11,593 nucleotides of DNA from the UHGV virus genome UHGV-1887975; one strand, written 5' to 3'. Position 1 is the first letter of the stretch, and each line of letters begins with the position of its first letter. The notes under the pieces are model-generated. The model was not told where the DNA came from and ran no database searches. It saw nothing but the letters and a program-made list of their open reading frames with translations. The translations under genes were made by a program, and so were the position numbers. Origin of the DNA: a virus. Shown in pieces: positions 1 to 11,593 of this stretch.

Positions 1-62
1 CATAAAGTAAGGTCAATTACGCCAAAAATGACATTTTCACTGATCCTGATCGTCTTGCCTTA

Positions 63-92
63 TTGAATATGATTGCTATTTGCATTTAAAAT
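63..92 (+). promoter_or_regulatory. tonB: Host tonB promoter: -35 TTGAAT (63-68), -10 TAAAAT (87-92), overlapping an AT-rich Fur-box-like segment (about 65-83, GAATATGATTGCTATTTGC)
   Basis: The hexamers are read directly, with an 18-nt spacer. I recognise the surrounding sequence as the E. coli tonB upstream region. The left flank joined to the right flank across the 13-bp core restores a contiguous tonB 5' region. Confidence 0.6.
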
Positions 93-128
93 CGAGACCT
101 GGTTTTTCTACTGAAATGATTATGACTT

Positions 129-141
129 CAATGACCCTTGA
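129..141. repeat. attL core, CAATGACCCTTGA
   Basis: It is identical to 11514-11526. It contains the tonB-derived ATG at 131-133, which here opens only a 4-codon mini-ORF (ATG ACC CTT GAA TAA, 131-145). Confidence 0.75.
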
Positions 142-148
142 ATAAAGT

Positions 149-156
149 CTATTCGG
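149..156. repeat. attP' arm inverted repeat CTATTCGG, partner of 11498-11505
   Basis: It is the perfect reverse complement of CCGAATAG at 11498-11505. The two arms lie 7 and 8 nt from the core, so they are symmetric about TGA|CCC in the core. Confidence 0.65.
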
Positions 157-258
157 TTTTCTTTAGATGTTCGCCTCACATAATCTTCAAGTGATGTTCC
201 TTACATCTCCCTAGAGCGTTAAGATAGTTAACTGATTGAGTTTTCAGGGTATGAAAGG

Positions 259-924
259 ATGAGCAACACTACTGATTGGGGAAGCATGATAGCCAACATA
301 GTTATGGCTACTACCGCTGTCTGGGCTGCATTCAAAGCTAATGACTGGTTTAAAACCAAGCGTCTTGAGAGTGCTGAAAACTTCTATAAAGAAGTACACA
401 ATCTCCATAAACGTTACTATTCAGCTATCCAATACGTTGAGGATTCAAGAAGAATATTTGATAGTCAGTATGGGTTGCATTCGCCAATATCTGAACCTAA
501 AGACAAGTCATTGCAATGGGAGGTTAAATCGAACTCTTACAAAATCATCGCTGAACTAGATTATCTGGCATCGTCACTACAAATGATGGATGCAATGGGT
601 AACAAACTTAGCCCTAAATCGGCTTCACTGGTTAGTGATATGATGGAAGCACATGGACGATTCTGTAATGATGTGATGAACTTCAATGACTCAGTTTGGA
701 AGGTTATAAGGGCAGGTATAACTGAAGAGAACATCCCACATACGCGAGGCTATGTGAACGGCGATTACATGGCTATCCTTACCAGTATGGATGAACCTGT
801 AAGAATATCTTTTAAGTTAAAAGAAATCAGTTTTAAAGATTTTTACTTACATGAAACTACTATGCAGTCAGTAATAACGAGGCTGAAATCGCTTATCGCC
901 AGAACAGGTAAAAACAGGACATAA
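259..924 (+). CDS. Hypothetical membrane-anchored protein, 221 aa, with one N-terminal TM helix (about residues 9-25) and a helical soluble domain
   Basis: It is a long ORF and the first gene inside attL, on the same strand as the tonB promoter. The hydrophobic segment is MIANIVMATTAVWAAF. The SD (GAAAGG) abuts the ATG, so the exact start is uncertain. Confidence 0.7.
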   Translation: MSNTTDWGSMIANIVMATTAVWAAFKANDWFKTKRLESAENFYKEVHNLHKRYYSAIQYVEDSRRIFDSQYGLHSPISEPKDKSLQWEVKSNSYKIIAELDYLASSLQMMDAMGNKLSPKSASLVSDMMEAHGRFCNDVMNFNDSVWKVIRAGITEENIPHTRGYVNGDYMAILTSMDEPVRISFKLKEISFKDFYLHETTMQSVITRLKSLIARTGKNRT

Positions 925-1112
925 ACAGGTTAGTACCTATGCAATTTAACGGTATTTTTCCAAGTATCTATGCAATCCTACACAGATTCTATACAGTATC
1001 GACATAGTTTCCTTTTGGTATAACTTATTGAAATATATAAAGAATCTGTGAAGCCCCTTTTCAGGGTAAACTGTATCGTGTTAGTCGTCCCTCTCTCGAC
1101 TCCTAGAAAAGT

Positions 1113-1142
1113 GCTATATACAGGGCTATATAATGCTATATA
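1113..1142. repeat. Three tandem GCTATATA units (1113-1120, 1125-1132, 1135-1142), including a perfect TATAAT at 1129-1134
   Basis: Read directly, with a period of 10-12 bp. This could be a promoter cluster or an easily melted AT-rich element. Confidence 0.5.
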
Positions 1143-2591
1143 GATAGTTGGTCACATGGTGTAACTATCAAACTACTTAACAGTTTCCTACGTGAAAGTT
1201 AGAAAGTGATAGTTATAGTTACCTTGTCAAATCTTCGTAGTCCATTCTTAAAAAATCACTTACAGACACCTTAATATCTATACAGATTTCATGTAGAACA
1301 CGATTAGTGCGTAGAAGAGTCATTATGTTAAAAACGAACTGTATACGTATCAGTACTGATTTATAAGGGTTTTGTGTATTTGAAGATAAGAGGCTATACA
1401 GCACCTTGAGAGCATGTCTTCTAAGTCATTGATACATAAGGTCACAGAAGTTTGTGTCTGTTACAGAGAAAACTGGATAGGACTTCACAGAACTACAAAA
1501 TGTTACAGCTATTGATAGGTGAAATCTTCTTGATAGATGCCTTGAAGTGTGGTGAAGGTTTCTTGAGGTGGAGCTAAACAGATGCTATGAAGAAAGTCAA
1601 TAGTTGGTTATAGATATTTTAACTGCTTTTGCAAAGGGGGTGCTGTATCGTGAATCTGGGGTACTTAACAGCCATCAATCATGAGGTAGATTCTACCGAA
1701 TCAACTGTGTAGATATTTTTTAAGATTATCGGTGAAGGGGGAATGCAGAGGGGGGTACTACGATTTTTATAAAAATTTTCAGAAGCCAAATAACTACTGT
1801 GTATATTTTGCACAATCCTGCCAAACCTCATAGAAAGCTCTGTAGCGAGTTTTAACCCCATTTTTAGGGGTAACCTGTAGGGATGTACCACCCACCTTAA
1901 AATAAAGGGGTAAAATCGCTTAGAATGCGTTACAGAGCGTCTGAGAAGCTATATTCACAGATTTTACTAAAGTCTCAGACTTCTAAGTAGTCTTTTTAAC
2001 GGGAGGGTTCTTTCTCATGTATCACCCTCTCTTCCCGCTAAGTAAGCTACACAGACCTAGAGAACATGCCTTCACAGCATCTATATCAGGTCAGATTTAG
2101 AGGGTTTTGATAGAATTTTCAAAGGTACTTGACAGATAACTATGAAGTTGTTAGGAAGAATTGTTTAACGGGAGGAAAGATACGATATAACCCGAAGGGA
2201 AAGTATCATCTTAACAGTGATTGTAAGAGATACCTGAAAAGCTCCTCTTAACAGAACTACCAAGAAGAGAGGGAACGATAAGACCAGAGGTAGTGACCTG
2301 TTAAATAGTTCGTTTCAAAGCTCTTAAGAGTCTGTTAAGTAAGGGCTATGTGAACAATCTTACCATTTTGTCAATGCTCTTGTCTTTGACCTAAATCAAT
2401 AAAATGTATCGTTTGATATGGTTTTAAGCAAGATGGCTAAAAATCTTTTTAGAGGGGCGCTTCGCTTGTGTCACTATGTTCTTTCTCTCCCTGTCTAAGA
2501 GGGGGGTTACAGAGGTCTTTCAAGTCTCAATAGACAAACCGAGGAACGCAGGAAACCGAGGGAAGAAAAACTATTGTGATTACCCTGAACA

Positions 2592-2625
2592 AGGTCTGTA
2601 AAGGTCGTTTAAGAGGTCGGTTAAG
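2592..2625. repeat. Three tandem iteron-like units: AGGTCTGTAA, AGGTCGTTTAAG, AGGTCGGTTAAG
   Basis: Read directly. The units are contiguous with a period of 10-12 bp. Confidence 0.6.
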
Positions 2626-2749
2626 AAAGGAGCTTCCCTCTCTGGGGTTGTCGCTCTTCTCTCGCTTGGTGGATTGATTAGGGGGTATGTTATACAAGCC
2701 CAACTAAGAAGACCTCTGAAGCTTACCTGTGAAGAAGCTGAACAGCTAT

Positions 2750-2802
2750 TATATTGGGTGATTACAACTCATTGAAAAATAAGCATTTTTAGAAATCACT
2801 GT
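2750..2802. repeat. 53-bp direct repeat, copy 1
   Basis: 49 of 53 positions match 2844-2896, at an offset of 94 bp. Confidence 0.85.
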
Positions 2803-2843
2803 TAAGGTTGCAGAGTTGTCTGTGAGGAGACTTGTCTGCTCTC

Positions 2844-2896
2844 TATATTGGGTGGTTACAACTTATTGAAAAATAAGAACTTTTAGAAATCACTGT
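2844..2896. repeat. 53-bp direct repeat, copy 2
   Basis: 49 of 53 positions match 2750-2802. Confidence 0.85.
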
Positions 2897-2998
2897 CAGA
2901 GAGGTGAATACTTGATAGATACAGCTTTCCGGTTCTGTCAAGTCATTTTTTAATAGATAGCATAAAATGCTAAAGATACCCCTATACCATCACGTACA

Positions 2999-3026
2999 GG
3001 GGGTTTTGAAGGGGGTTTAACGGGGG
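2999..3026 (+). repeat. Three G5 tracts at 11-12-nt spacing: AGGGGGTTTTGA, AGGGGGTTTAAC, GGGGG
   Basis: G5 runs at 2999-3003, 3011-3015 and 3022-3026. The third run overlaps the last codons of the minus-strand small ORF. Confidence 0.6.
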
Positions 3027-3193
3027 TCTGTGTGGTCATTATCCTTAAGGTCAAGCGTCCATGTACGACCGAACAGTTTAAAGACAACAAGCACTCTGAC
3101 GAGGACGTAGCGAAGTAGCAGGCCTGCAATAAGTCCAATACCTCCACCAGCCCATACATCAGGTGACCCCAATTCTGGAGGGAGATTTACCAT
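3017..3193 (-). CDS. Small single-pass membrane protein, 58 aa (MVNLPPELGSPDVWAGGGIGLIAGLLLRYVLVRVLVVFKLFGRTWTLDLKDNDHTDPR)
   Basis: The ATG at 3193 is preceded by AAGGA with a 6-nt spacer on the minus strand. The protein has a clear hydrophobic helix, and the segment is locally GC-richer than its surroundings. The track's longer version (to 3235) begins at a TTG with no SD. Confidence 0.4.
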   Translation of the reverse strand: MVNLPPELGSPDVWAGGGIGLIAGLLLRYVLVRVLVVFKLFGRTWTLDLKDNDHTDPR

Positions 3194-3410
3194 TAAATTT
3201 CCTTGTAAGACGCTCTCAATCGCATTCTGACACAAAAAAGTACCTGACCTTATAGTTGACCTGAAGAGGCCATTTAACTCGTTACAGAGCGATTGAAGAG
3301 GTCTGTGTGCAATGCAATAACCATGTGACCACTCTCATAGCCACGCCTCATATTTTACTCTCCCCATAGAACCATTATACCACAGATGTTAATGAAATGT
3401 TAAAAAGTGC

Positions 3411-3439
3411 TTGACATTAGTCTTTGAAAATGCTAGTAT
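3411..3439 (+). promoter_or_regulatory. Strong sigma70 promoter for the rightward operon: TTGACA (3411-3416), 17-nt spacer, extended -10 TGcTAGTAT (3431-3439)
   Basis: Hexamers and spacing are read directly. It is followed by two TTAACA boxes (3450-3455, 3461-3466) one helical turn apart, in an operator position. Confidence 0.65.
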
Positions 3440-3487
3440 TGTATATAAGTTAACAGAGGATTAACAATTATAAGGACTAGCTTATGA

Positions 3488-4042
3488 ATGAACGACAGAG
3501 AATTTAGAGCGATGCTTCAGGCATCAAGAGAACGCAACAAGCACAACTCCTACGCTTACACAAACAACCCCACCAGCTACGAACTACCAGCCTTTTCCAA
3601 ATCCGAACGTAAAAGCATTGAAGCGGTCATTCGTAGCATTACGCCACGAGGCAGATATATGCCAACACGCAAAACAACAAAGAATAACTTAAAAACTTTC
3701 TTGATGAGTTTTGACAGCTACGAACAATTACCGTCACGAATTGAAGATGTAATTATCGGCACTTGTCGCAGCTTTGGAAGGGATAACTATCACCGGAAAG
3801 TTTTCTATTTGCTTCGAAGCCTTGATGAGATTAACTCAAGCACAGTGACGAGCCATCTTCAAAGACAAGCAACCAGACTTAGCCACGAGCTACCATCTGA
3901 TAAGTATTGCGCTAATTTAACCACCATTTGCAATAAAGTTATCGAGACAATCAATCATCATGTTGGGGTTGGTAATATCAGCCTTACGACCAGTGAGCCA
4001 GACTTTGAATTTGACGTATACGCACAAGCAGAGGAATTTTAA
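3488..4042 (+). CDS. Hypothetical protein, 184 aa
   Basis: It is the first ORF downstream of the 3411 promoter. Its stop lies 1 nt before the next start. The SD is weak or distant. Confidence 0.7.
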   Translation: MNDREFRAMLQASRERNKHNSYAYTNNPTSYELPAFSKSERKSIEAVIRSITPRGRYMPTRKTTKNNLKTFLMSFDSYEQLPSRIEDVIIGTCRSFGRDNYHRKVFYLLRSLDEINSSTVTSHLQRQATRLSHELPSDKYCANLTTICNKVIETINHHVGVGNISLTTSEPDFEFDVYAQAEEF

Positions 4043-4043
4043 A

Positions 4044-4325
4044 ATGGGAAATAAACACACACTAACCAGAGTTACAAAGACAGCCTTTGAAGAACTTAAC
4101 CGAATCAAAAACATTACAGGTCTGCCACACTCAGCAGTGATGAAGCTTGCAATTAACCGTGATATTAACGAGCAGGATTTGCTTAATAGTCGTTTAGAGG
4201 CAGCAAGACACCATATCAGGATTAAGCAAGATGACCTTGATAGTCTGAAATCTTTAAATGCTTTTGGACTGGATTTAGCAAGGTTACTAAGTATCAAAAT
4301 TCACAAATTAGCGATGGAGGTTTAA
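4044..4325 (+). CDS. Putative ribbon-helix-helix (CopG/Arc-like) DNA-binding protein, 93 aa
   Basis: The ATG at 4044 is preceded by GAGGA with an 8-nt spacer. The N-terminus HTLTRVTKTAFEELNRIKNITGLPHSAVMKLAINR follows the strand-helix-turn-helix pattern of CopG-type RHH proteins. The track's 3960 start overlaps the upstream gene. Confidence 0.7.
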   Translation: MGNKHTLTRVTKTAFEELNRIKNITGLPHSAVMKLAINRDINEQDLLNSRLEAARHHIRIKQDDLDSLKSLNAFGLDLARLLSIKIHKLAMEV

Positions 4326-4711
4326 TGTATGACTTTTATAAACATCGTGACCATTTGGTAAGATTTGACGGTAAAGTCTGGAAAGACGTAACACAAACCA
4401 ATAAGCCCAAGTTTACCCACCAGCAATTAGCCTCAAGATTTGATATCTGGGCTGAAGCACAAAAAGATAATGGTGATTTCGAGTTTATCAGAGGTTTTGA
4501 TTATGCTTACGAAAGCGACCTTAAAGACGCCATTGAATTAATGGAGAACTTCAACTCTATTAAAAATAGTGACAAGCACAAAGCCAACGGTAACAGATAC
4601 GATAAAGATTTAATCATTGATGCAATCACCAAAGGACAATCACAAAGTTATATTTCTGAGAAATACGGCTTATCACGTAGTCAATACTACAAGATTAAAG
4701 CGTCTGTGTAA
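4325..4711 (+). CDS. Hypothetical protein with a C-terminal helix-turn-helix, 128 aa
   Basis: TAATG overlap with the upstream gene and a GGAGG SD. The C-terminus ITKGQSQSYISEKYGLSRSQYYKIK resembles resolvase/terminase-small-type HTH motifs. Confidence 0.75.
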   Translation: MYDFYKHRDHLVRFDGKVWKDVTQTNKPKFTHQQLASRFDIWAEAQKDNGDFEFIRGFDYAYESDLKDAIELMENFNSIKNSDKHKANGNRYDKDLIIDAITKGQSQSYISEKYGLSRSQYYKIKASV

Positions 4712-4849
4712 GTCTGTGAGAATGAGTGAGACTCAAAGATGAGCTACCCTATTACTAAGGTGTCTCACTCCCTCTGTAACCCGCATGGTTACTGGCCTCA
4801 GAATGGCTATTTTGGCAGATTTAAGATGTGTTTTTATAGGATTTTAAAA

Positions 4850-5173
4850 ATGAATAATTTCCCACTACAGATTTTTATTGATACCGACACCGCCATGATG
4901 ATTCAGGCTTTCACTGATGTAGGTGTTAGCATTGACTTTGATAAGTTGTTAGAGTTAATGGCTGATNATNCNGANANCATCTNTGACTTTATTCACTCGG
5001 TGGAGTTTAACGAGCCTCGAATGATGTTACCAATTACAGACAGTAATATGAAAAGATTGGTTATTGAGCAAACGAACAAATACAGTATTTCCCCAGAGCA
5101 ATTTTTGAAAGGTGCTGTGACAATCCTGTACAGCGATAATATTTTGGTTACGGATTCCGTGAGGGTTCACTAA
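4850..5173 (+). CDS. Hypothetical protein, 107 aa, containing 6 ambiguous bases
   Basis: The ORF is in the frame of the track's 4739..5173 entry. The ATG at 4850 (MNNFPLQ...) is preferred because 4739-4849 holds two hairpins and encodes an atypical Cys/Trp/His-rich peptide. The start remains uncertain. Confidence 0.6.
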   Translation: MNNFPLQIFIDTDTAMMIQAFTDVGVSIDFDKLLELMADXXXXIXDFIHSVEFNEPRMMLPITDSNMKRLVIEQTNKYSISPEQFLKGAVTILYSDNILVTDSVRVH

Positions 5174-5250
5174 TGGGCTTAATAATTGCTTGGACGTTGC
5201 TTGGCTTATTTGTTGGTTGCTGGGTGGGTAACACAGTAAATAAGAATTGA
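5173..5250 (+). CDS. Tiny hydrophobic peptide, 25 aa (MGLIIAWTLLGLFVGCWVGNTVNKN)
   Basis: TAATG start/stop overlap with the upstream gene. GAGGG SD at 5161-5165 with a 7-nt spacer. The sequence is TM-like. It falls below the ORF-track length cut-off. Confidence 0.45.
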   Translation: MGLIIAWTLLGLFVGCWVGNTVNKN

Positions 5251-5273
5251 TGTTATCAATCTGTTAAAAGCTG

Positions 5274-5302
5274 TTGACAAATAACCTTAAGCATGAGATG
5301 AT
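5274..5302 (+). promoter_or_regulatory. Candidate sigma70 promoter: TTGACA (5274-5279), 17-nt spacer, GATGAT (5297-5302)
   Basis: The -35 is perfect but the -10 is mediocre. It lies in a 495-nt intergenic gap. Confidence 0.3.
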
Positions 5303-5308
5303 GGTAAT

Positions 5309-5496
5309 AGGGGGCAACTCTTCCTGAATTAAACTATTAATCATTCTACATCAATGATAGTTATTCTGAGTTGGAAAGGTGCAATGCTTTTCGTCATGGC
5401 CTATTTAGCCCACACTAGATAGGCTATCTCAAAAAGTCTTTGTTTATTCATTGAATCCTTTACAGATTGCCCTAATCATGAGTTAGGGCGTTTTTT
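5309..5496 (+). ncRNA. Candidate sRNA of about 190 nt, between the 5274 promoter and the 5469-5496 terminator
   Basis: This rests only on the promoter-terminator pairing in an intergenic region. It contains an internal stem GCCTAT/ATAGGC and a 22-aa hydrophobic mini-ORF (5354-5422) that has no SD. Confidence 0.25.
5469..5496 (+). terminator. Rho-independent terminator: GCCCTAA / TTAGGGC stem, 7-nt loop, then GTTTTTT
   Basis: The 7-bp perfect stem (5469-5475 / 5483-5489) and the T-run (5491-5496) are read directly. Confidence 0.65.
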
Positions 5497-5667
5497 AAGA
5501 GTTTTTAAAGAAATTTCTTCACCAGCCCTTTATAGCGTTTTAGTTATCTAGGGCTTTTTCAGCTTTTAAAAAGCATACTTGGCAAACGCTTTTAAGTCTC
5601 TTCTAAGTTCGTAGGCTGTCAGGTGTGCTTTTTAAAAACTGAATATTACTTAGAAGAGGAAAAAACA

Positions 5668-6378
5668 ATGACAAACGATTTATATATTAACGGCAGAAAG
5701 ATTGATAGCTTCGGGGACTGGTCACCACAGGGTGAACATCCGCTACATACTATTCAGCGTAAAGAACACGATGAAAGAATTAAGCTTGAGCAAGAGTTAA
5801 AGATGTCACCAAAGGTAATTTCCTTTGTGTCTCCTGAGCCTCAAGAAATGCCTGATGTATGCAAAACTGAAGCACTATTTAATCTTGAGCGTGAATATTA
5901 CCCACTGCTAAAAGCACAGCGTATTAAACTAGATGACGCTTACAGCAAAGTTACCCTGATGCAATCAGCTATTGAGCCATCAGAATTTGAGATTCAGGAT
6001 GAATTGTCACAGAAACCATTTGTCTATTACAAATATGAAGACAATGATGGTTTTGGTACTTTTCCTGAGAATATCCCAGACGTGATTAATAATCTTCCTG
6101 ATGGATATCGAATTGTGAAGATGGTTAAAGCTTCAAGAGGTGCTGGTCAGTTTATTTTCATGACCGATAGGAGCGATGAAGAACTCTGTGAAATTGCTAA
6201 ACAGAACATCTTAGCATCACGTAACAAGCAACTTGAAAATGTTAAGTTGTATCTCTCAAGAGAGCTTCAGGCTATGAAAGAGCTTGTTAGTGAATATGAA
6301 TCACAGAAGAAGATTGCTATGCAGGCTGATATTGAGCAGTTAGTGAAGATTTCTCAGAAATATGCAAAGGCACTTTAA
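5668..6378 (+). CDS. Hypothetical protein, 236 aa, with a coiled-coil-like C-terminus
   Basis: The ATG at 5668 is preceded by AGAGGA with a 7-nt spacer. The track's 5623 start is a GTG inside the GTGTGCT motif. Confidence 0.75.
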   Translation: MTNDLYINGRKIDSFGDWSPQGEHPLHTIQRKEHDERIKLEQELKMSPKVISFVSPEPQEMPDVCKTEALFNLEREYYPLLKAQRIKLDDAYSKVTLMQSAIEPSEFEIQDELSQKPFVYYKYEDNDGFGTFPENIPDVINNLPDGYRIVKMVKASRGAGQFIFMTDRSDEELCEIAKQNILASRNKQLENVKLYLSRELQAMKELVSEYESQKKIAMQADIEQLVKISQKYAKAL

Positions 6379-6402
6379 CTATGAATTAAAAGGAGGTGGT
6401 GA

Positions 6403-6606
6403 ATGATTGATTTAACAGAACGCTATGAGCTTATTAAAGCAATTAGTGAACGATTGAAAGAACAACCCAACAAACCAAAACGAATCAAATCATCCACCTC
6501 TAAGCAAAAGAATAGAATCAGAAGAATCGCTAAATGGTGTCTTGATAAATTACCAAGTGATTGTCAGATTGTCGGTGAAGATGGTAATTATTATCTGGTT
6601 AGGTAA
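6403..6606 (+). CDS. Small basic hypothetical protein, 67 aa
   Basis: Strong SD (AAAGGAGGTGGTGA then ATG). Lys/Arg-rich centre. Followed by a terminator. Confidence 0.7.
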   Translation: MIDLTERYELIKAISERLKEQPNKPKRIKSSTSKQKNRIRRIAKWCLDKLPSDCQIVGEDGNYYLVR

Positions 6607-6631
6607 AAAGATTGGTTGGGTAAAAATCAAC

Positions 6632-6672
6632 GGGAGAGATTATCGAGTGACATCGGTAGCTCTCCCTTTTTT
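6632..6672 (+). terminator. Rho-independent terminator: GGGAGAG / CTCTCCC stem followed by TTTTTT
   Basis: Stem arms at 6632-6638 and 6660-6666, and the T-run at 6667-6672, are read directly. Confidence 0.7.
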
Positions 6673-6700
6673 GTATATGAGATAGTCTTCTATCGAATCC

Positions 6701-6802
6701 TGTGTGCTACGTGATGATTCGGATAAGAATTATCCTCATGAAATCTGTAAAACTAATACCCACACTGAAAAATAGAATTTACGTACAACACGCTTAAAGA
6801 GG
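6701..6802 (+). promoter_or_regulatory. Conserved GTGTGCT-box intergenic element, copy A, upstream of the tape-measure gene
   Basis: It shares GTGTGCTACGTGA (6702-6714) and the block TACCCACACTGAAAAATAGAATTTACGTACAACACGCTTAAAGAGG (6757-6802) with copy B. The two ends can pair (6701-6714 with 6779-6792, with 2 internal mismatches). Confidence 0.55.
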
Positions 6803-6812
6803 TGAAACATGA

Positions 6813-8936
6813 ATGAGCAAATTCACAGTTGATAGTTTTATCGTTGAGCTAGGCTTCAATGAAAACGTTATTAAGGGACTGCAAAGAGTTGAAAAGGCAG
6901 CTTTGCAGTCAGCACAAAGAATTGAAAAGAACCTAAATAAAGGTTTCAGGATTAATACAAAGCAGCTTGATAGTAATTTAACGGCTTCTTTAGGGCAGCT
7001 TGAAAGGAAGTTTAATAAGGCCTTTGACAAGATTGAACAGAGAGCAAGAAATACTAAAGCTTTCCAGTTTACCACCAGATTTAATGACACTGTTAATCCT
7101 CCAAAACAACCAAGACAGCCACGAATTAGCGGAAACAGAGCAATCACAGCAGCTTACTCAGCGAATATGAGCAAGCTAAAAGGCCTTAACCCAATTGTCG
7201 AGAAATACATTAAGAGTCAGTTTTACGGGCTATCTGCTAAAGCCGGGTCAATGGATTCTTCAAAATTCAATGAGAAGTTAGCTCAGTTAAACGCTTCAGT
7301 CAGAGAAGCAATTGCTAAAGCCAGAGGTCATACATCCACCAGCATTAATGGTGACAGAGCAGCTAATAGTCTTGATAACCTGTCTTCAGCAGCAGTTAAA
7401 ACAGCAGGTGCATTTATCTCAATGCAGGCTGTATTAGCCAGTTATCAGAAGATTATGGAAATTGGTTTACAGCGTGCAAGTGCTGAACGTTCAATTGATT
7501 TCGTATTTGATAAAGATGCAGGTCAGGTAAAAGAGTTCACAAAGTCATTAGCTCAAACAACGGGTTTAGATATCGCTGAACTGCAATCACAGTTTGCTGG
7601 TTTTGGTGCTTCAGCTAAAGAGTCTATGGGTATTCAAGGTTCTGAAGAACTTTTTAAAAATATGATTGGCTATGCTCGTCTGATGGGGAGAAGTGAAGAA
7701 GAGATTAAGCGAGCACTGACAGCATTATCACAGATGGCTGGTAAGGGTCAGATTATGGCTGAAGAGCTTAAGGGGCAACTGGCTGAAGCTGTTCCTGGTA
7801 TGGTTCAGGTATTCGCTAAAGCAACCGGAAAGACTGAACAGGAATTATTTGATGCCATGAAGAAGGGGGCTTTAAAATCTGCCGATACTCTTCAGAAGGT
7901 CACTCAGGAACTGAATAAACAAATCACCGCTAAAGGTGGCTGGAAAGCCATTTCAGAAAGTACTCAGGCACAACTAGGGAACTTGAAAAACTCTTGGAAT
8001 ACCACGCTTGATAGTATCTTCAGAGGTTCTGAAAATGGTCTGCAAGATTTTACACGAAGCCTAACAACGCTTTTAAACGCTCTTGGTGGAAGTGGTAAAA
8101 GTCTTGGTGAATCTCTTGGTAGTCTCATGACTTCTATGTCACATGGTGTCGATAGTCTGACCGATATTAGTTACAAGGTGCGAGCGTTCTTTGATGAGGT
8201 GACATTAGCTTACCGTTCACTAAATGACACTCAGAGGAAAATTGTTGATGGTTTATCTGATGGGTTAATTGATGGTTTGAAGATGCTTGCTGTGGCTGTT
8301 ACTGCTCAAAAGGCTGCAAATGTAGCTGGAGGCTTGTTAAACCTTGCAAATGCTGTTACTTCATTCGGTGATGCTGTTAATAAAGCTAAAGCTGGCAAGG
8401 CTGGTTCTTCAGGTGGTGCGCTAAGTAAAGTCGGTAGAGTTGTCCTTTATGCTGAGTTGGTAAACTTTGCTCTTGATAATTTAAACCCTGAAGCAGCTAA
8501 GAATCCGAACTTACACCAATCAGGTATTGGTACAGAAACAAACTTCAATCCTGAATACAAAGGCGATTCTAAACCAAACCAAATTAATGAGGGGTGGGCT
8601 AAGATTGGTAGTTCTATCGCTGACTGGTTTAATGGTGCAGCTAATAAAATTGCTAACTTACAAGAACCGATGAATAACTTCGTAAATAACACACAATCAA
8701 CTCCACCAGCTATCGACACGGTGAATATCAATGCTCAATTAGCTATGGCTGTATCAGAGTTAGGAAGAAAGGTTGATGCTTTAACAGTAGAAGCTCGGAA
8801 GCCTTTATCAGTTAATATCAAAGGTGAAGCAATTGTTAGGCCGGATGAGCCATCTTTCTTTAATTTCAATCAATCAGCTAATGACCAGTTCACGCAGGAT
8901 ATGCTCTTAAGTTCAAGCTATCCAGAGGAAGAATGA
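6813..8936 (+). CDS. Tail tape measure-like protein, 707 aa
   Basis: The central segment ALSQMAGKGQIMAEELKGQLAEAVPGMVQVFAKATGKTEQELFDAMKKGALKSAD matches the conserved tape-measure core motif known from lambda H/TP901-type TMPs. The protein is long, helical and Ala/Gly/Ser-rich. GAGGTG SD with an 8-nt spacer. Confidence 0.85.
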   Translation: MSKFTVDSFIVELGFNENVIKGLQRVEKAALQSAQRIEKNLNKGFRINTKQLDSNLTASLGQLERKFNKAFDKIEQRARNTKAFQFTTRFNDTVNPPKQPRQPRISGNRAITAAYSANMSKLKGLNPIVEKYIKSQFYGLSAKAGSMDSSKFNEKLAQLNASVREAIAKARGHTSTSINGDRAANSLDNLSSAAVKTAGAFISMQAVLASYQKIMEIGLQRASAERSIDFVFDKDAGQVKEFTKSLAQTTGLDIAELQSQFAGFGASAKESMGIQGSEELFKNMIGYARLMGRSEEEIKRALTALSQMAGKGQIMAEELKGQLAEAVPGMVQVFAKATGKTEQELFDAMKKGALKSADTLQKVTQELNKQITAKGGWKAISESTQAQLGNLKNSWNTTLDSIFRGSENGLQDFTRSLTTLLNALGGSGKSLGESLGSLMTSMSHGVDSLTDISYKVRAFFDEVTLAYRSLNDTQRKIVDGLSDGLIDGLKMLAVAVTAQKAANVAGGLLNLANAVTSFGDAVNKAKAGKAGSSGGALSKVGRVVLYAELVNFALDNLNPEAAKNPNLHQSGIGTETNFNPEYKGDSKPNQINEGWAKIGSSIADWFNGAANKIANLQEPMNNFVNNTQSTPPAIDTVNINAQLAMAVSELGRKVDALTVEARKPLSVNIKGEAIVRPDEPSFFNFNQSANDQFTQDMLLSSSYPEEE

Positions 8937-8950
8937 TTTCTTATATATAT

Positions 8951-9026
8951 CCGTGTGCTACGTGAAATCTTCTGAACGGATATACCCACTAAAAATTATT
9001 TTTTACGTAGCTCACGCTTAACAGAG
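8951..9026 (+). promoter_or_regulatory. Conserved GTGTGCT-box intergenic element, copy B, upstream of the 9102 gene
   Basis: GTGTGCTACGTGA at 8953-8965 and TACCCACTAAAAATTATTTTTTACGTAGCTCACGCTTAACAGAG at 8983-9026. The ends form a 16-bp stem with one mismatch (8952-8967 with 9001-9016). Confidence 0.55.
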
Positions 9027-9101
9027 AAAATACTTATATATCAAAGGTTTGGTTAAAAATGATTAAAATACACTAAGCCTTTGAAATCAAAGGAGAATTT
9101 A

Positions 9102-9872
9102 ATGATTTACACTAATCAGCTTCGTTACAGTGGCAAAGATGGTGTTTACTTCCATCTACAAGGCCAACCAGATAATTTCTTGTCACTATCAGCAACTGAG
9201 AACATGGAATATGACAGCCCTATGATGGTGACCACTCAAAATATGCAATCAGGGCAGACTGTAACAGATAATGTAATGCGTTCACCAAGAACTATTTCAA
9301 TCAGTGGTGTGGTTGTGGTTGGTGAATCCGGTAGTATCCTTATCTCAAGAGATAATAAGCTGGTGGAAAACTTCATAGACACTCTTGAAAACTGGCGTGA
9401 CCAGAAGCAAATTATCTCAGTTGTCTGTAAAGATGGTATTAAGATTGACGACTCAATTATTACAAGCTTTAAAGCCTCTAAAGATGTTGGTATTTCAAAC
9501 GGCCTAAGAATCCAGCTAACTTTTCAGGAAATCAACTTTAAAGCTATCGTAGGGCAAACTGATATTTCGACTGCTACTGGCAAGACCGCTACCACGAATG
9601 ATGGTGGTGCTACTTCTAAGAAGAATACAGGGAATACTACGACAAGTCTTGGAAGCCCTATGCTGACCTGTAAAGAGCTTTTTAGCTATTCGGCAAGTAA
9701 GTTATCAGATGAAGCGCTAAAAGCCCGTGTAACGTGCTCTAAGAGCGTTAGCGTTAAAAATGGTGAGAGCACCTTCACAGCCTCAGCTAATGAGCAAGCT
9801 TCAAAGGTGCTTAAGTCGGGTAATGCTTTACGGAAGTACTCTGTGAATCCGAATAAGAAGGGCACTTATTGA
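9102..9872 (+). CDS. Hypothetical tail-associated protein, 256 aa, named by position downstream of the TMP; the C-terminal half is Thr/Ser/Gly-rich
   Basis: The ATG at 9102 is preceded by AAGGAG with a 6-nt spacer. The track's 9081 start is a TTG. The function is inferred only from synteny with the TMP. Confidence 0.7.
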
Positions 9873-9881
9873 GACATAAAA

Positions 9882-9899
9882 AGGGGCTTCATAGCCCCT
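9882..9899 (-). terminator. Hairpin AGGGGCT / AGCCCCT between convergent genes, followed by a T-run on the minus strand; terminator for the integrase gene
   Basis: 7-bp perfect stem and 4-nt loop. The minus strand reads AGGGGCTATGAAGCCCCTTTTTAT. Confidence 0.65.
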
Positions 9900-9904
9900 G
9901 AAAA

Positions 9905-11425
9905 TTACAGTTGATAAGCGTCAATATCCAGTAGCTCTTTATCAGCAATTTCAAAGATTGGTGACCCATCATTTAGCGGTAACGGGTTTGTAGGTATGGT
10001 TATTTCAGTGTCGTTCTGTAGCGTTACAGTTACCGAATCCTTACCCAATGTCAGCCCCTTTAGATGCTTGGACAAAATCAACTGACACTCGACACGACCC
10101 GCTTTAGTTGTCAGGTCAATATCTTTAAGCTGGGGTAGTTCCTTATCAGTGAGTGAAGCCTTACGCCTCATGTTATCAATCGTGGTCTGTAGCTCTGTGC
10201 GCTTCTGGTTCAGTTCCTTAAGCTGAATTTTTAGTTCATCAATATCATCCATCTCAAGAAGTAGGGCGGTAGCTTTCTTGATTCTGGTTGTGACAATTTC
10301 AACCTCATGCTGTAGAGATGCAATCTTCCCCTCTGCTTCTCCATCATTCCCCACGTCAATCATCCCCAGAAAATTATCAATCATCCACTTATCAAACGGT
10401 TTACGCTTCAACGGAGGAACATCACAGCGACCATCAAGATGGTTATTGCACCGATAAACGCCCTGATACTTATTCTTAGTCCCTGTAGGGTGAACACTAG
10501 CCCCGCACTGACACCTAAACAGACCTTTGAAGATGTTAATCGTTAATGGATTATCACTTGCAGGTGTACGGCCTATACGGTTCTTACCAAGAATCTCTTG
10601 AGCTTTATTGAACGTTGAAGCATCTATAGCGGCTTCGTAGTAGTTCGGTATAGCGGGGCGGTCATTACGTTGTGATGCTGGTAACGTGCCTATCGTTGTC
10701 TCTGACCTTAAGATGGTGCGTACAGAGTGAACACTAAACCCGTTAGCATCTTTACGGCGACTAAACGACTTTATACCGTTGCTTTGAAGGTGACGGGCGA
10801 TGTTATGCAGACTTTCACCACTTAGCAGCAGCTTGAAAATCAGTCTTACAGTCTCAGCGTGTTCATTGAGTTTAAAAGTATCGGGGTCAATCCATCCGGG
10901 AACCATCTTTGTTAAACGTTGTTCACCAGCAAGGGCAAGTTTTGCACGTTGCTCCCATTTCTGAGAAACACGGAAAGACTTCTGCTTAGATTCCTGATGC
11001 GCTATGTAGGCTTTGACACGCTGGATGATTGAGATTCCTAAATCATCGGCTAAAGCATCCTTTGTGTAGATAAGACCATCTTGTAGCGTGTGAATCTCTA
11101 ACCCGTTGCCTAAGATGCGATTCATCAAGGCTTCTGTTTCAAGGTGTTCTAAGCGGCCTATACGGTCGATACTCTCAACAAGCAAAATCGTACCTTCTGG
11201 AAACTCCCCAGACTCAATACGGGCTAACATGTCACCAAACTGACCAGTAAGATGCTTACCTTTGTAACCGGATAGGCCTTCATCACTGAAAGACGCTACT
11301 ACTTGAGCATCGCTATTCTTCTTCAGCCACTGCTTGAACAGGTCGTTTTGTCGTCTGGTTGAATCTGCACCTTCAGCGCCTTGTATAGCTGAACTGTACC
11401 GAAGGTATGTAATTACGCTCCTCAT
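9905..11425 (-). CDS. Large serine recombinase (integrase), 506 aa
   Basis: N-terminal catalytic motif YLRYSSAIQ with downstream VESIDRIGR. Cys-rich zinc-ribbon segment CQCGASVHPTGTKNKYQGVYRCNNHLDGRC. C-terminal coiled coil. The gene lies adjacent to attR. Confidence 0.9.
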   Translation of the reverse strand: MRSVITYLRYSSAIQGAEGADSTRRQNDLFKQWLKKNSDAQVVASFSDEGLSGYKGKHLTGQFGDMLARIESGEFPEGTILLVESIDRIGRLEHLETEALMNRILGNGLEIHTLQDGLIYTKDALADDLGISIIQRVKAYIAHQESKQKSFRVSQKWEQRAKLALAGEQRLTKMVPGWIDPDTFKLNEHAETVRLIFKLLLSGESLHNIARHLQSNGIKSFSRRKDANGFSVHSVRTILRSETTIGTLPASQRNDRPAIPNYYEAAIDASTFNKAQEILGKNRIGRTPASDNPLTINIFKGLFRCQCGASVHPTGTKNKYQGVYRCNNHLDGRCDVPPLKRKPFDKWMIDNFLGMIDVGNDGEAEGKIASLQHEVEIVTTRIKKATALLLEMDDIDELKIQLKELNQKRTELQTTIDNMRRKASLTDKELPQLKDIDLTTKAGRVECQLILSKHLKGLTLGKDSVTVTLQNDTEITIPTNPLPLNDGSPIFEIADKELLDIDAYQL

Positions 11426-11467
11426 GGTGATAAACTCCCATGCAATTGATTCTCATTTAAAGATAAG

Positions 11468-11495
11468 CTTATAACCATTATGGCTAATGCTACAA
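11468..11495 (-). promoter_or_regulatory. Candidate integrase promoter on the minus strand: TTGTAG (-35, plus-strand coordinates 11490-11495), 16-nt spacer, TATAAG (-10, 11468-11473)
   Basis: Hexamers read from the reverse complement. It would give a leader of about 36 nt before the int ATG. Confidence 0.35.
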
Positions 11496-11496
11496 T
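11469..11496 (+). promoter_or_regulatory. Candidate island-borne outward promoter facing tonB: TTATAA (11469-11474), 16-nt spacer, extended -10 TGcTACAAT (11488-11496)
   Basis: Read directly. GCTACAAT recurs at 11505-11512. This is the only promoter-like sequence between the integrase gene and the tonB ATG. Confidence 0.35.
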
Positions 11497-11497
11497 G

Positions 11498-11505
11498 CCG
11501 AATAG
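11498..11505. repeat. attP arm inverted repeat CCGAATAG, partner of 149-156
   Basis: It is the perfect reverse complement of 149-156 and lies 8 nt from the core. Confidence 0.65.
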
Positions 11506-11513
11506 CTACAATA

Positions 11514-11526
11514 CAATGACCCTTGA
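11514..11526. repeat. attR core, CAATGACCCTTGA
   Basis: It is identical to 129-141 and contains the functional tonB ATG (11516-11518). Confidence 0.75.
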
Positions 11527-11593
11527 TTTACCTCGCCGCTTCCCCTGGCCGACGTTACTTTCGGTCTGCATTCATGGTGCTGTTGTGGCGGGG
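11516..11593 (+). CDS. tonB: TonB energy-transducer, 5' partial (first 26 codons; continues beyond the window)
   Basis: The translation MTLDLPRRFPWPTLLSVCIHGAVVAG matches the E. coli TonB N-terminus as I remember it. The reading frame is open to the window edge. Confidence 0.85.
   Translation, partial: MTLDLPRRFPWPTLLSVCIHGAVVAG

Follow-up and report, generated by a model that had tools for sequence, protein, structure and literature searches.

The island inserted at the start of tonB

The DNA analysed here is an 11,593-nt window (UHGV-1887975), whose numbering is used throughout. Between its two ends, at positions 142-11513, lies what is very probably a mobile island inserted by its own large serine recombinase, through recombination of attP with attB at the start codon of tonB. 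The conserved backbone of this island codes for a 236-amino-acid (aa) coiled-coil protein, a 67-aa protein, a tail tape-measure protein, a Dit-like tail/baseplate protein and the integrase (Table 1).

In the mechanism that we propose, the integrase (9905-11425, minus strand) would recombine attP with an attB site that spans the tonB start codon, and the 13-bp direct repeat bordering the island would represent the identity common to attP and attB. A staggered cut would take place at the dinucleotide AC in codon 2 of tonB, i.e. at 134-135 in attL and 11519-11520 in attR. The TonB coding sequence would thereby survive with an ATG that is now island-derived, and the Fur-regulated promoter would be left pointing into the first cargo gene. 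Transcription of tonB would be taken over by the right end of the island, where a TGnTACAAT sequence at 11488-11496 is the candidate promoter.

Table 1. Features of the tonB island and its flanks in the 11,593-nt window
Feature	Position	Strand	Evidence or remark
Host yciI-tonB intergenic DNA	1..128	+	Match to K-12 MG1655
attL core, CAATGACCCTTGA	129..141	+	Crossover dinucleotide AC predicted at 134-135
P' arm of attP	142..163	+	Inverted-repeat arm CTATTCGG at 149-156; arm conserved in the 61% clade
Left-end cargo gene, 221 aa	259..924	+	N-terminal hydrophobic segment; same direction as displaced tonB promoter
ORF-poor region, 2.1 kb	925..3019	.	No annotated gene in near-identical RefSeq record
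Conserved element, ~125 nt	1821..1948	+	Inverted copy at 3202-3305; fold z-score -3.8
Small conserved hydrophobic protein, ~58-62 aa	3020..3193	-	tblastn, 74-77% identity to 61-62-aa sister-island proteins
Four small genes, function unknown	3488-4042, ~4012-4325, 4325-4711, 4739-5173	+
Backbone protein, 236 aa, NCBI label 'transposase'	5668..6378	+	Conserved; coiled coil and small alpha/beta domain (AlphaFold)
Conserved 67-aa protein	6403..6606	+	Directly upstream of tape-measure gene; syntenic in every sister island
Tail tape-measure protein, 707 aa	6813..8936	+	PF20155, phrog_4036
Dit-like tail/baseplate protein, 263 aa	9081..9872	+	PF21821
Large serine recombinase (integrase), 506 aa	9905..11425	-	Three domains (Resolvase, Recombinase, Zn_ribbon_recom); phrog_95
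P arm of attP and divergent control region	11426..11513	+	Arm CCGAATAG at 11498-11505; -10-like TGcTACAAT at 11488-11496; kept in the 94%, 74% and 61% integrase clades
attR core, CAATGACCCTTGA	11514..11526	+	Crossover AC predicted at 11519-11520; functional tonB ATG at 11516-11518
Start of tonB coding sequence, intact, MTLDLPRRFPWPTLLSVCIHGAVVAG...	11516..11593	+	Annotation of near-identical RefSeq locus; K-12 comparison

A 13-bp direct repeat marks both ends of the island

An earlier note on this DNA had claimed that the same 13-mer stands at both ends of the island. CAATGACCCTTGA is indeed present as exact copies at 129-141 and 11514-11526. The repeat is exactly 13 bp long, since the adjoining bases differ between the two copies (t/a before and a/t after). 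Repeated 13-mers occur at four separate loci of the window, in agreement with a chance expectation of approximately one plus one genuine 53-nt duplication. CAATGACCCTTGA is the sole repeat of at least 13 bp common to both 300-nt ends of the window.

Joining the outer flanks (1-141 and 11527-11593) reconstitutes the yciI-tonB region of K-12 MG1655 with three mismatches over 208 nt, all of them far away from the junction. An uninterrupted copy of the reconstructed attB is present in 5193 of the 5426 complete E. coli genomes, and the joined empty-site sequence is found with 100% identity in one O157:H7 strain. The flanks therefore align to an island-free tonB locus as had been anticipated. In the empty genomes, similarity to the left side of the window ends exactly at position 141, and that to the right side begins exactly at 11514. 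The DNA between the two repeats has a G+C content of 35-45%.

The 13-mer might be a chance match, the low-G+C segment having come by an unrelated route, as a sequence of 11.6 kb should by chance contain approximately one repeated 13-mer, in agreement with the estimate of the earlier note. However, when the two 300-nt ends were shuffled 2000 times, they shared 13 bp in just four cases, and the breakpoints of similarity with the 5193 empty genomes coincide exactly with the boundaries of the repeat. The comparison with the empty site rules out a fortuitous match, the probability of which is practically nil.

The integrase and its site specificity

The integrase harbours PF00239 (Resolvase) at residues 4-162 (E = 8e-16), PF07508 at 187-281 and then PF13408 at 298-345, and it matches phrog_95, annotated 'integrase', with an E value of 2e-77. 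Its N terminus, YLRYSS...Q, is the usual serine motif. The sequence is far from any solved structure and from CcrA, and no relatives were found in IMG/VR. The earlier note had placed the integrase gene next to attP, and the adjacent 506-aa protein does have the three domains of large serine recombinases. Judged in silico by its domains, a size in the range of ~450-700 aa, a dyad attP beside its gene and a less symmetric attB, it has the attributes of a large serine recombinase.

All 224 E. coli genomes with the integrase gene have it on the chromosome, and the integrase-tonB junction is found in 225. A Citrobacter genome codes for a 94%-identical integrase adjoining its own tonB ATG. The same backbone with a 74%-identical integrase is found on an assembly contig that terminates, again, at a tonB ATG. 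In another enterobacterium, the space between tonB and yciI is occupied by a 5.8-kb island that encodes a 518-aa integrase with 61% identity and whose cargo is unrelated. As the cargo of this island is different, the tonB integrase module serves at least two unrelated cargos. The cargo in question comprises unknown genes in addition to those for a DUF4145 protein and a small resolvase, without tail genes.

Related islands whose ends fall elsewhere are also found. The same backbone is present next to yecE, including in E. coli O111:H8 99.1145, together with a different large serine recombinase (33% identity to that of the tonB island). Such a difference is what specificity determined by the integrase predicts. 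The yecE locus is also used by prophages with tyrosine integrases.

Architecture of the attachment sites and position of the crossover

The attP junction reconstructed by joining the inner flanks contains CCGAATAGCTACAATACAATGACCCTTGAATAAAGTCTATTCGG. Its 8-bp inverted arms are perfect, with CCGAATAG at 11498-11505, 8 nt from the core, and CTATTCGG at 149-156, 7 nt from the core, as the earlier note had described. The spacing is thus 8 + 13 + 7, attP measures ~44-50 bp, and the arms lie 15-22 bp off centre. The TCAA/TTGA dyad reported for the host context was also seen, at 128-131 and 138-141. Self-complementary half-site positions amount to 17/30 in attP and 8/30 in attB, which is the usual asymmetry of serine integrases. 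Together with the conservation of the arms in more distant islands described below, these values agree with the serine-recombinase architecture initially proposed for attP.

The islands with the 61%-identical integrase made it possible to narrow down the crossover. Their attR is CCGAATAGctcaaataCAATGACCCTTGAtttacc and their attL is gacttCAATGACtattggttgtagtCTATTCGG. Both 8-bp arms and their spacing are identical to those of the window, and the spacer bases vary. The identity common to attL and attR of that clade is limited to CAATGAC, and the crossover must therefore fall inside these 7 bp. The dyad centre is located between the A and the C that close CAATGAC in both versions of attP, and hence AC is predicted to be the central dinucleotide, at 134-135 and 11519-11520. 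We thus infer from these alignments that the crossover takes place at the first two bases of tonB codon 2. The common heptanucleotide and the identical arm spacing also support the centre of symmetry that had been assigned to TGA|CCC.

The island of strain 21KM1392 has a variant at position 9 of the core, CAATGACCATTGA, in attL only, which fits with the right half of attL coming from attP. In strain KV7 the left cargo is different, yet the island end is kept up to position 162. In five of the six islands examined, the att cores and arms are both intact.

The direct repeat could in principle be a target-site duplication generated by a transposase, and the RefSeq record does label the 236-aa backbone protein 'transposase'. 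This protein nevertheless matches no transposase family or fold, and the insertion site is one and the same in 225 genomes and several genera. Furthermore, the 'duplication' of the 61% clade is only 7 bp long and is followed by attP-specific bases, which fits attP/attB identity rather than a duplication, and the ends of the island carry a serine-recombinase attP dyad rather than terminal inverted repeats. Transposition is thus extremely improbable.

Effects of the insertion on tonB

Since the ATG of tonB occupies positions 3-5 of the core and the predicted crossover follows in codon 2, attR retains an intact TonB coding sequence. The DNA upstream of this ATG is entirely that of the island. The tonB promoter is controlled by Fur. 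A promoter scan places the native promoter, TTGAAT-18-TAAAAT, at 63-92, and the Fur-box region lies at ~66-84; both have been left at attL. There, the host ATG at 131-133 now opens a mini-open reading frame (ORF) of four codons, MTLE-stop. The displaced tonB promoter faces this mini-ORF and the first cargo gene.

With the native promoter 11.4 kb away, tonB must be transcribed from the right end of the island. Read-through into tonB is unlikely because of a hairpin that sits between the Dit-like gene and the integrase gene, and because of the opposite orientation of the latter. An extended -10-like sequence, TGcTACAAT, points into tonB and may be the replacement promoter. The TGnTACAAT motif is kept both in the clade to which the window belongs and in the 61% clade; in the 74% clade TACTAT replaces TACAAT.

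In approximately 4% of complete E. coli genomes, tonB is severed from its Fur-regulated promoter, which could alter its iron-dependent regulation and the sensitivity of the cells to TonB-dependent agents. tonB, which is central to iron uptake, to the entry of colicins and to infection by TonB-dependent phages, joins the integration targets known so far.

A family of mosaic islands

Mosaic structure is seen in six further E. coli islands at tonB, which have a common right-hand backbone and a variable left side. Their left cargo consists of small invertase-type recombinases, a Dam methylase, AP2/HNH proteins or a helix-turn-helix protein. The 221-aa cargo gene of the window is similarly present in some islands and replaced in others. 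A search of IMG/VR with the 236-aa backbone protein returned seven provirus predictions from isolate genomes, which are yecE sister islands and not virion DNA. The integrase/att-site modules are interchangeable between tonB and yecE, an exchange typical of mobile families.

We determined the ratios of nonsynonymous to synonymous substitution rates (dN/dS) between island variants. They are 0.11-0.15 for the integrase, 0.11-0.13 for the Dit-like protein, 0.23-0.34 for the tape-measure protein and 0.33-0.39 for the 236-aa protein. Values of 0.11-0.39 across these four genes indicate that they are maintained by selection.

Tail proteins related to those of Felix O1-like phages

The closest phage relatives of both tail proteins are found in Felixounavirus, i.e. 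in Felix O1-like virulent myoviruses. In these phages the counterparts of the tape-measure and Dit-like genes are adjacent and in the same order, with the Dit-like gene directly downstream. The Dit-like gene of the island is 70% identical to its Felixounavirus counterpart at the amino acid level and 81% at the nucleotide level. The tape-measure protein is more unevenly related to that of phage HK3, with 73% identity over the N-terminal 45 aa, an identical stretch over the last 11 aa, and 20-30% identity in the centre. The sequence comparisons indicate that the tail genes derive from phage and that they are under purifying selection. They are the only two virion genes in the 11.4 kb of the island according to Pfam and PHROG.

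The 67-aa gene occupies the position of the tape-measure chaperone gene of phages, and no sequence similarity was found between the two.

An ORF-poor region resembling a non-coding phage region

Two blocks of the ORF-poor region, 1596-1730 and 2259-2320, show 73-83% identity to a stretch of Ounavirinae genomes that is free of ORFs and located between converging transcription units (20258-21927 in phage HK3). The ORF-free phage region contains 15.6 TGTTAA-type repeats per kb, as compared with 1.3 per kb elsewhere. In the ORF-poor region of the island TGTTAA is present in 12 copies, versus 2.8 +/- 1.75 in shuffled sequences. Many phage records start or finish inside the ORF-free region, and one Ounavirinae record both starts and ends there with a 64-nt overlap, which could be either a terminal repeat or an assembly overlap. 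This part of the phage genome may contain an origin, the termini or regulator sites. The genome of Felix O1 had been opened arbitrarily at rIIA (PMC3185647). It is possible, although we hold this with low confidence, that the ORF-poor region is a cis-acting mimic of a phage replication or packaging region.

We looked for gene remnants in 925-3019 using the proteins of the variable regions of sister islands, and the only match was to the small ORF at 3020-3193; the hypothesis that the region consists of pseudogene remnants was thus rejected.

The ~125-nt conserved element and its inverted copy flank a segment of 1.25 kb, and distant sister islands hold one copy. The element has the lowest fold z-score of the region, and in a five-sequence alignment compensatory changes affect seven of its 29 predicted pairs. 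A structured RNA is one possibility and the boundary of an invertible segment another; several of the sister islands have a gene for a small invertase-type recombinase here.

Satellite, defence island or relic

Like satellites in general, the island is integrated, has its own integrase and att sites, and is devoid of most virion, lysis and replication genes. We considered that it might live at the expense of virulent Felix O1-like phages, as their satellite or parasite, a possibility that we put forward tentatively. In such a scenario, the phage-like termini of the tail proteins would have been retained to fit the tails of the helper, and the ORF-poor region would mimic a cis-acting phage region. 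The features that point to a helper of this kind are the 81% nucleotide identity of the Dit-like gene to Felixounavirus, the conserved tape-measure termini and the short phage-like non-coding blocks, all of which could reflect gene capture alone. More speculative still is the broader proposal of an undescribed family of enterobacterial satellites living on Ounavirinae, with interchangeable serine integrases for tonB or yecE, tape-measure and hub-proximal tail proteins of their own with termini suited to the helper tail, a cis-mimicking region and a tonB promoter swap reversed by excision.

Several results weigh against the scheme of a mobile island with a replacement tonB promoter and a phage helper. 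Neither replication, packaging and capsid genes nor a recombination directionality factor were identified among the island proteins using Pfam, PHROG, PADLOC and NCBIfam. The circular attP junction that the earlier note had proposed to look for, or a concatemeric form of it, had no match in public contigs, as a degenerate 44-nt pattern encompassing all observed variants retrieved none in IMG/VR or in JGI metagenome contigs. A standard -35/-10 scan detected no canonical promoter upstream of tonB at the right end of the island. The phage likeness of the ORF-poor region is short (60-135 nt, 73-83% identity) and is found in only some island variants. Finally, in O111:H8 strains the tonB copy is decayed, with a truncated integrase and insertion sequence (IS) elements.

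The O111:H8 strains, together with the lack of an excised form in the contigs searched and the presence of just two structural genes, would be compatible with an immobile relic, namely a decaying prophage fragment whose repeats are the fossil of an old integration. The tonB site of the O111:H8 strains (NZ_CP077588.1) has a truncated integrase remnant, after which come IS elements that have invaded the locus together with the type III effector genes nleG and espM1; here, a decayed island at the tonB attB site has been turned into an effector locus. As a general explanation, however, a relic is improbable. The integrase and backbone genes are intact, with the low dN/dS values given above, and copies of the element occur in a range of hosts that includes E. 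coli, Shigella and Citrobacter. The att cores and arms are preserved in all but one of the six islands examined, the backbone is paired with at least two integrase/att modules, and the gene set is constant, unlike what random decay would produce. We favour an island that may still be mobile.

The same cargo could serve another purpose. The island might be an integrase-mobile defence island that spreads by other means than a helper, and its tape-measure and Dit-like proteins might be decoys that poison the tail assembly of Felix O1-like phages. Tail proteins with phage-like termini and a divergent centre would be suited to this role, the left-end cargo is variable as in defence hotspots, and no packaging or replication genes were recognized with Pfam and PHROG. 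Nevertheless, no island protein matches a PADLOC defence model, and blocks and a repeat motif are common to the ORF-poor region and non-coding phage DNA, a resemblance for which a pure decoy would have no need. We regard defence as rather unlikely.

Comparison with known mobile elements

Several elements integrate into host genes by means of large serine recombinases, including phage A118 in comK, SPbeta in spsM and Bxb1 in groEL1; phiC31 and SCCmec, with CcrAB, also belong to these systems. The tonB island resembles them in having a three-domain integrase encoded beside attP, an imperfect attP dyad and a shorter, less symmetric attB, with a short attP/attB identity around the central dinucleotide. 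Like them, it is strictly site-specific and inserts within a gene. Judging from these shared features, its mechanism appears to be that of a standard large-serine-recombinase integrative element. It differs from them in that the predicted crossover falls in codon 2, so that the coding sequence is preserved and the exchange affects only the promoter and the 5' leader.

The nearest functional analogue of the island appears to be the PLE of Vibrio cholerae, a satellite of phage ICP1, itself a virulent myovirus. Both are small (11-18 kb), have a large serine recombinase, show homology to a virulent myovirus and contain an incomplete set of virion genes. However, PLE is inserted in Vibrio cholerae repeats and carries genes for RepA, for a capsid-remodelling scaffold and for nucleases, whereas the island encodes a tape-measure and a Dit-like protein and integrates at tonB. 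Pfam and PHROG detected no replication-initiator or scaffold family and no genes shared with PLE, the PLE proteins not having been compared directly.

The island is also similar to PICIs, cf-PICIs, P4-like elements and PICMIs in size, use of a fixed chromosomal site, organization as a mosaic family, variable cargo at one end and interchangeable integrases. Among 10 island proteins, none matched in Pfam or PHROG the hallmarks of PICIs, cf-PICIs and P4-like elements (tyrosine integrase, AlpA, primase-replicase, small terminase, capsid or capsid-size proteins, and psu/delta/sid). cf-PICIs make capsids and steal tails; in contrast, the island encodes two tail parts and no capsid parts.

Phage phi80 likewise integrates in the neighbourhood of yciI and tonB. 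It is reported to have a tyrosine integrase and an attachment site in yciI (PMC5727415, PMC13449921). The island uses a different site, the tonB start codon, located ~220 bp from that of phi80. Unlike transposons or IS elements, it has a single insertion site and no transposase of a known family.

The earlier note knew of no report of tonB as an attachment site. Our literature search, performed on full texts and including the core and arm sequences, found no description of such a site or of the island; its scope did not extend to the supplementary tables of integrase surveys and most subscription journals, and the site may have been listed previously in such surveys. The element is set apart by a target in codon 2 of tonB, an important gene that is left intact, by the swap of the promoter, and by a tail-gene cargo unlike the sets of PICIs, cf-PICIs and P4-like elements. 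The attachment-site analysis provides a serine integrase with defined attP and attB sites ready for testing. If the proposed reading of the cargo is true, the island would correspond, in enterobacteria, to the PLE/ICP1 system of Vibrio. It would then be a satellite of a group of virulent phages used in Salmonella diagnostics and phage therapy, and the first satellite known to bring parts of the tail interior instead of capsid parts.

Other genes and sequence elements of the island

The 236-aa backbone protein has more than 3000 homologues, and its AlphaFold model has a mean pLDDT of 76. It had no match in Pfam, NCBIfam, PADLOC or PDB sequences, and Foldseek searches against PDB and BFVD gave no significant hit. 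The name 'transposase' that it bears in thousands of NCBI records is supported neither by family, structure nor fold. In the near-identical RefSeq record, the PGAP labels are 'tape measure protein', 'phage baseplate protein', 'transposase' and hypothetical proteins. The small ORF at 3020-3193 is unannotated in that record.

The 221-aa cargo protein had no match in Pfam, PHROG, PADLOC or NCBIfam. Among the four small genes, that at 4325-4711 codes for a weak C-terminal helix-turn-helix. Rfam and tRNA scans of the window returned nothing.

Related sequences of ~60-95 nt that include GTGTGCTACGTGA are found at 6702-6797 and 8953-9021, upstream of the tape-measure and Dit-like genes. A third, inverted and partial copy of the GTGTGCTACGTGA type is located at 1284-1301 (minus strand) in the ORF-poor region. 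The possibility that GTGTGCTACGTGAAATCT (6702, 8953 and, on the minus strand, 1284) is a helper-phage promoter was dropped, as this sequence is absent from phage HK3. The upstream sequences of the GTGTGCTACGTGAAATCT and GTGTGCTACGTGA types may be island-specific promoters or regulator sites.

Six single N bases are present at 4967, 4970, 4972, 4975, 4977 and 4983, inside an ORF of 144 aa, and near-identical islands have A, G, G, A, G and C, respectively, at these positions. They may correspond to mixed alleles or to a low-quality consensus in the source assembly. The ORF-poor region also contains a 53-nt direct repeat, at 2750-2802 and 2844-2896, with 92% identity and a spacing of 94 nt.

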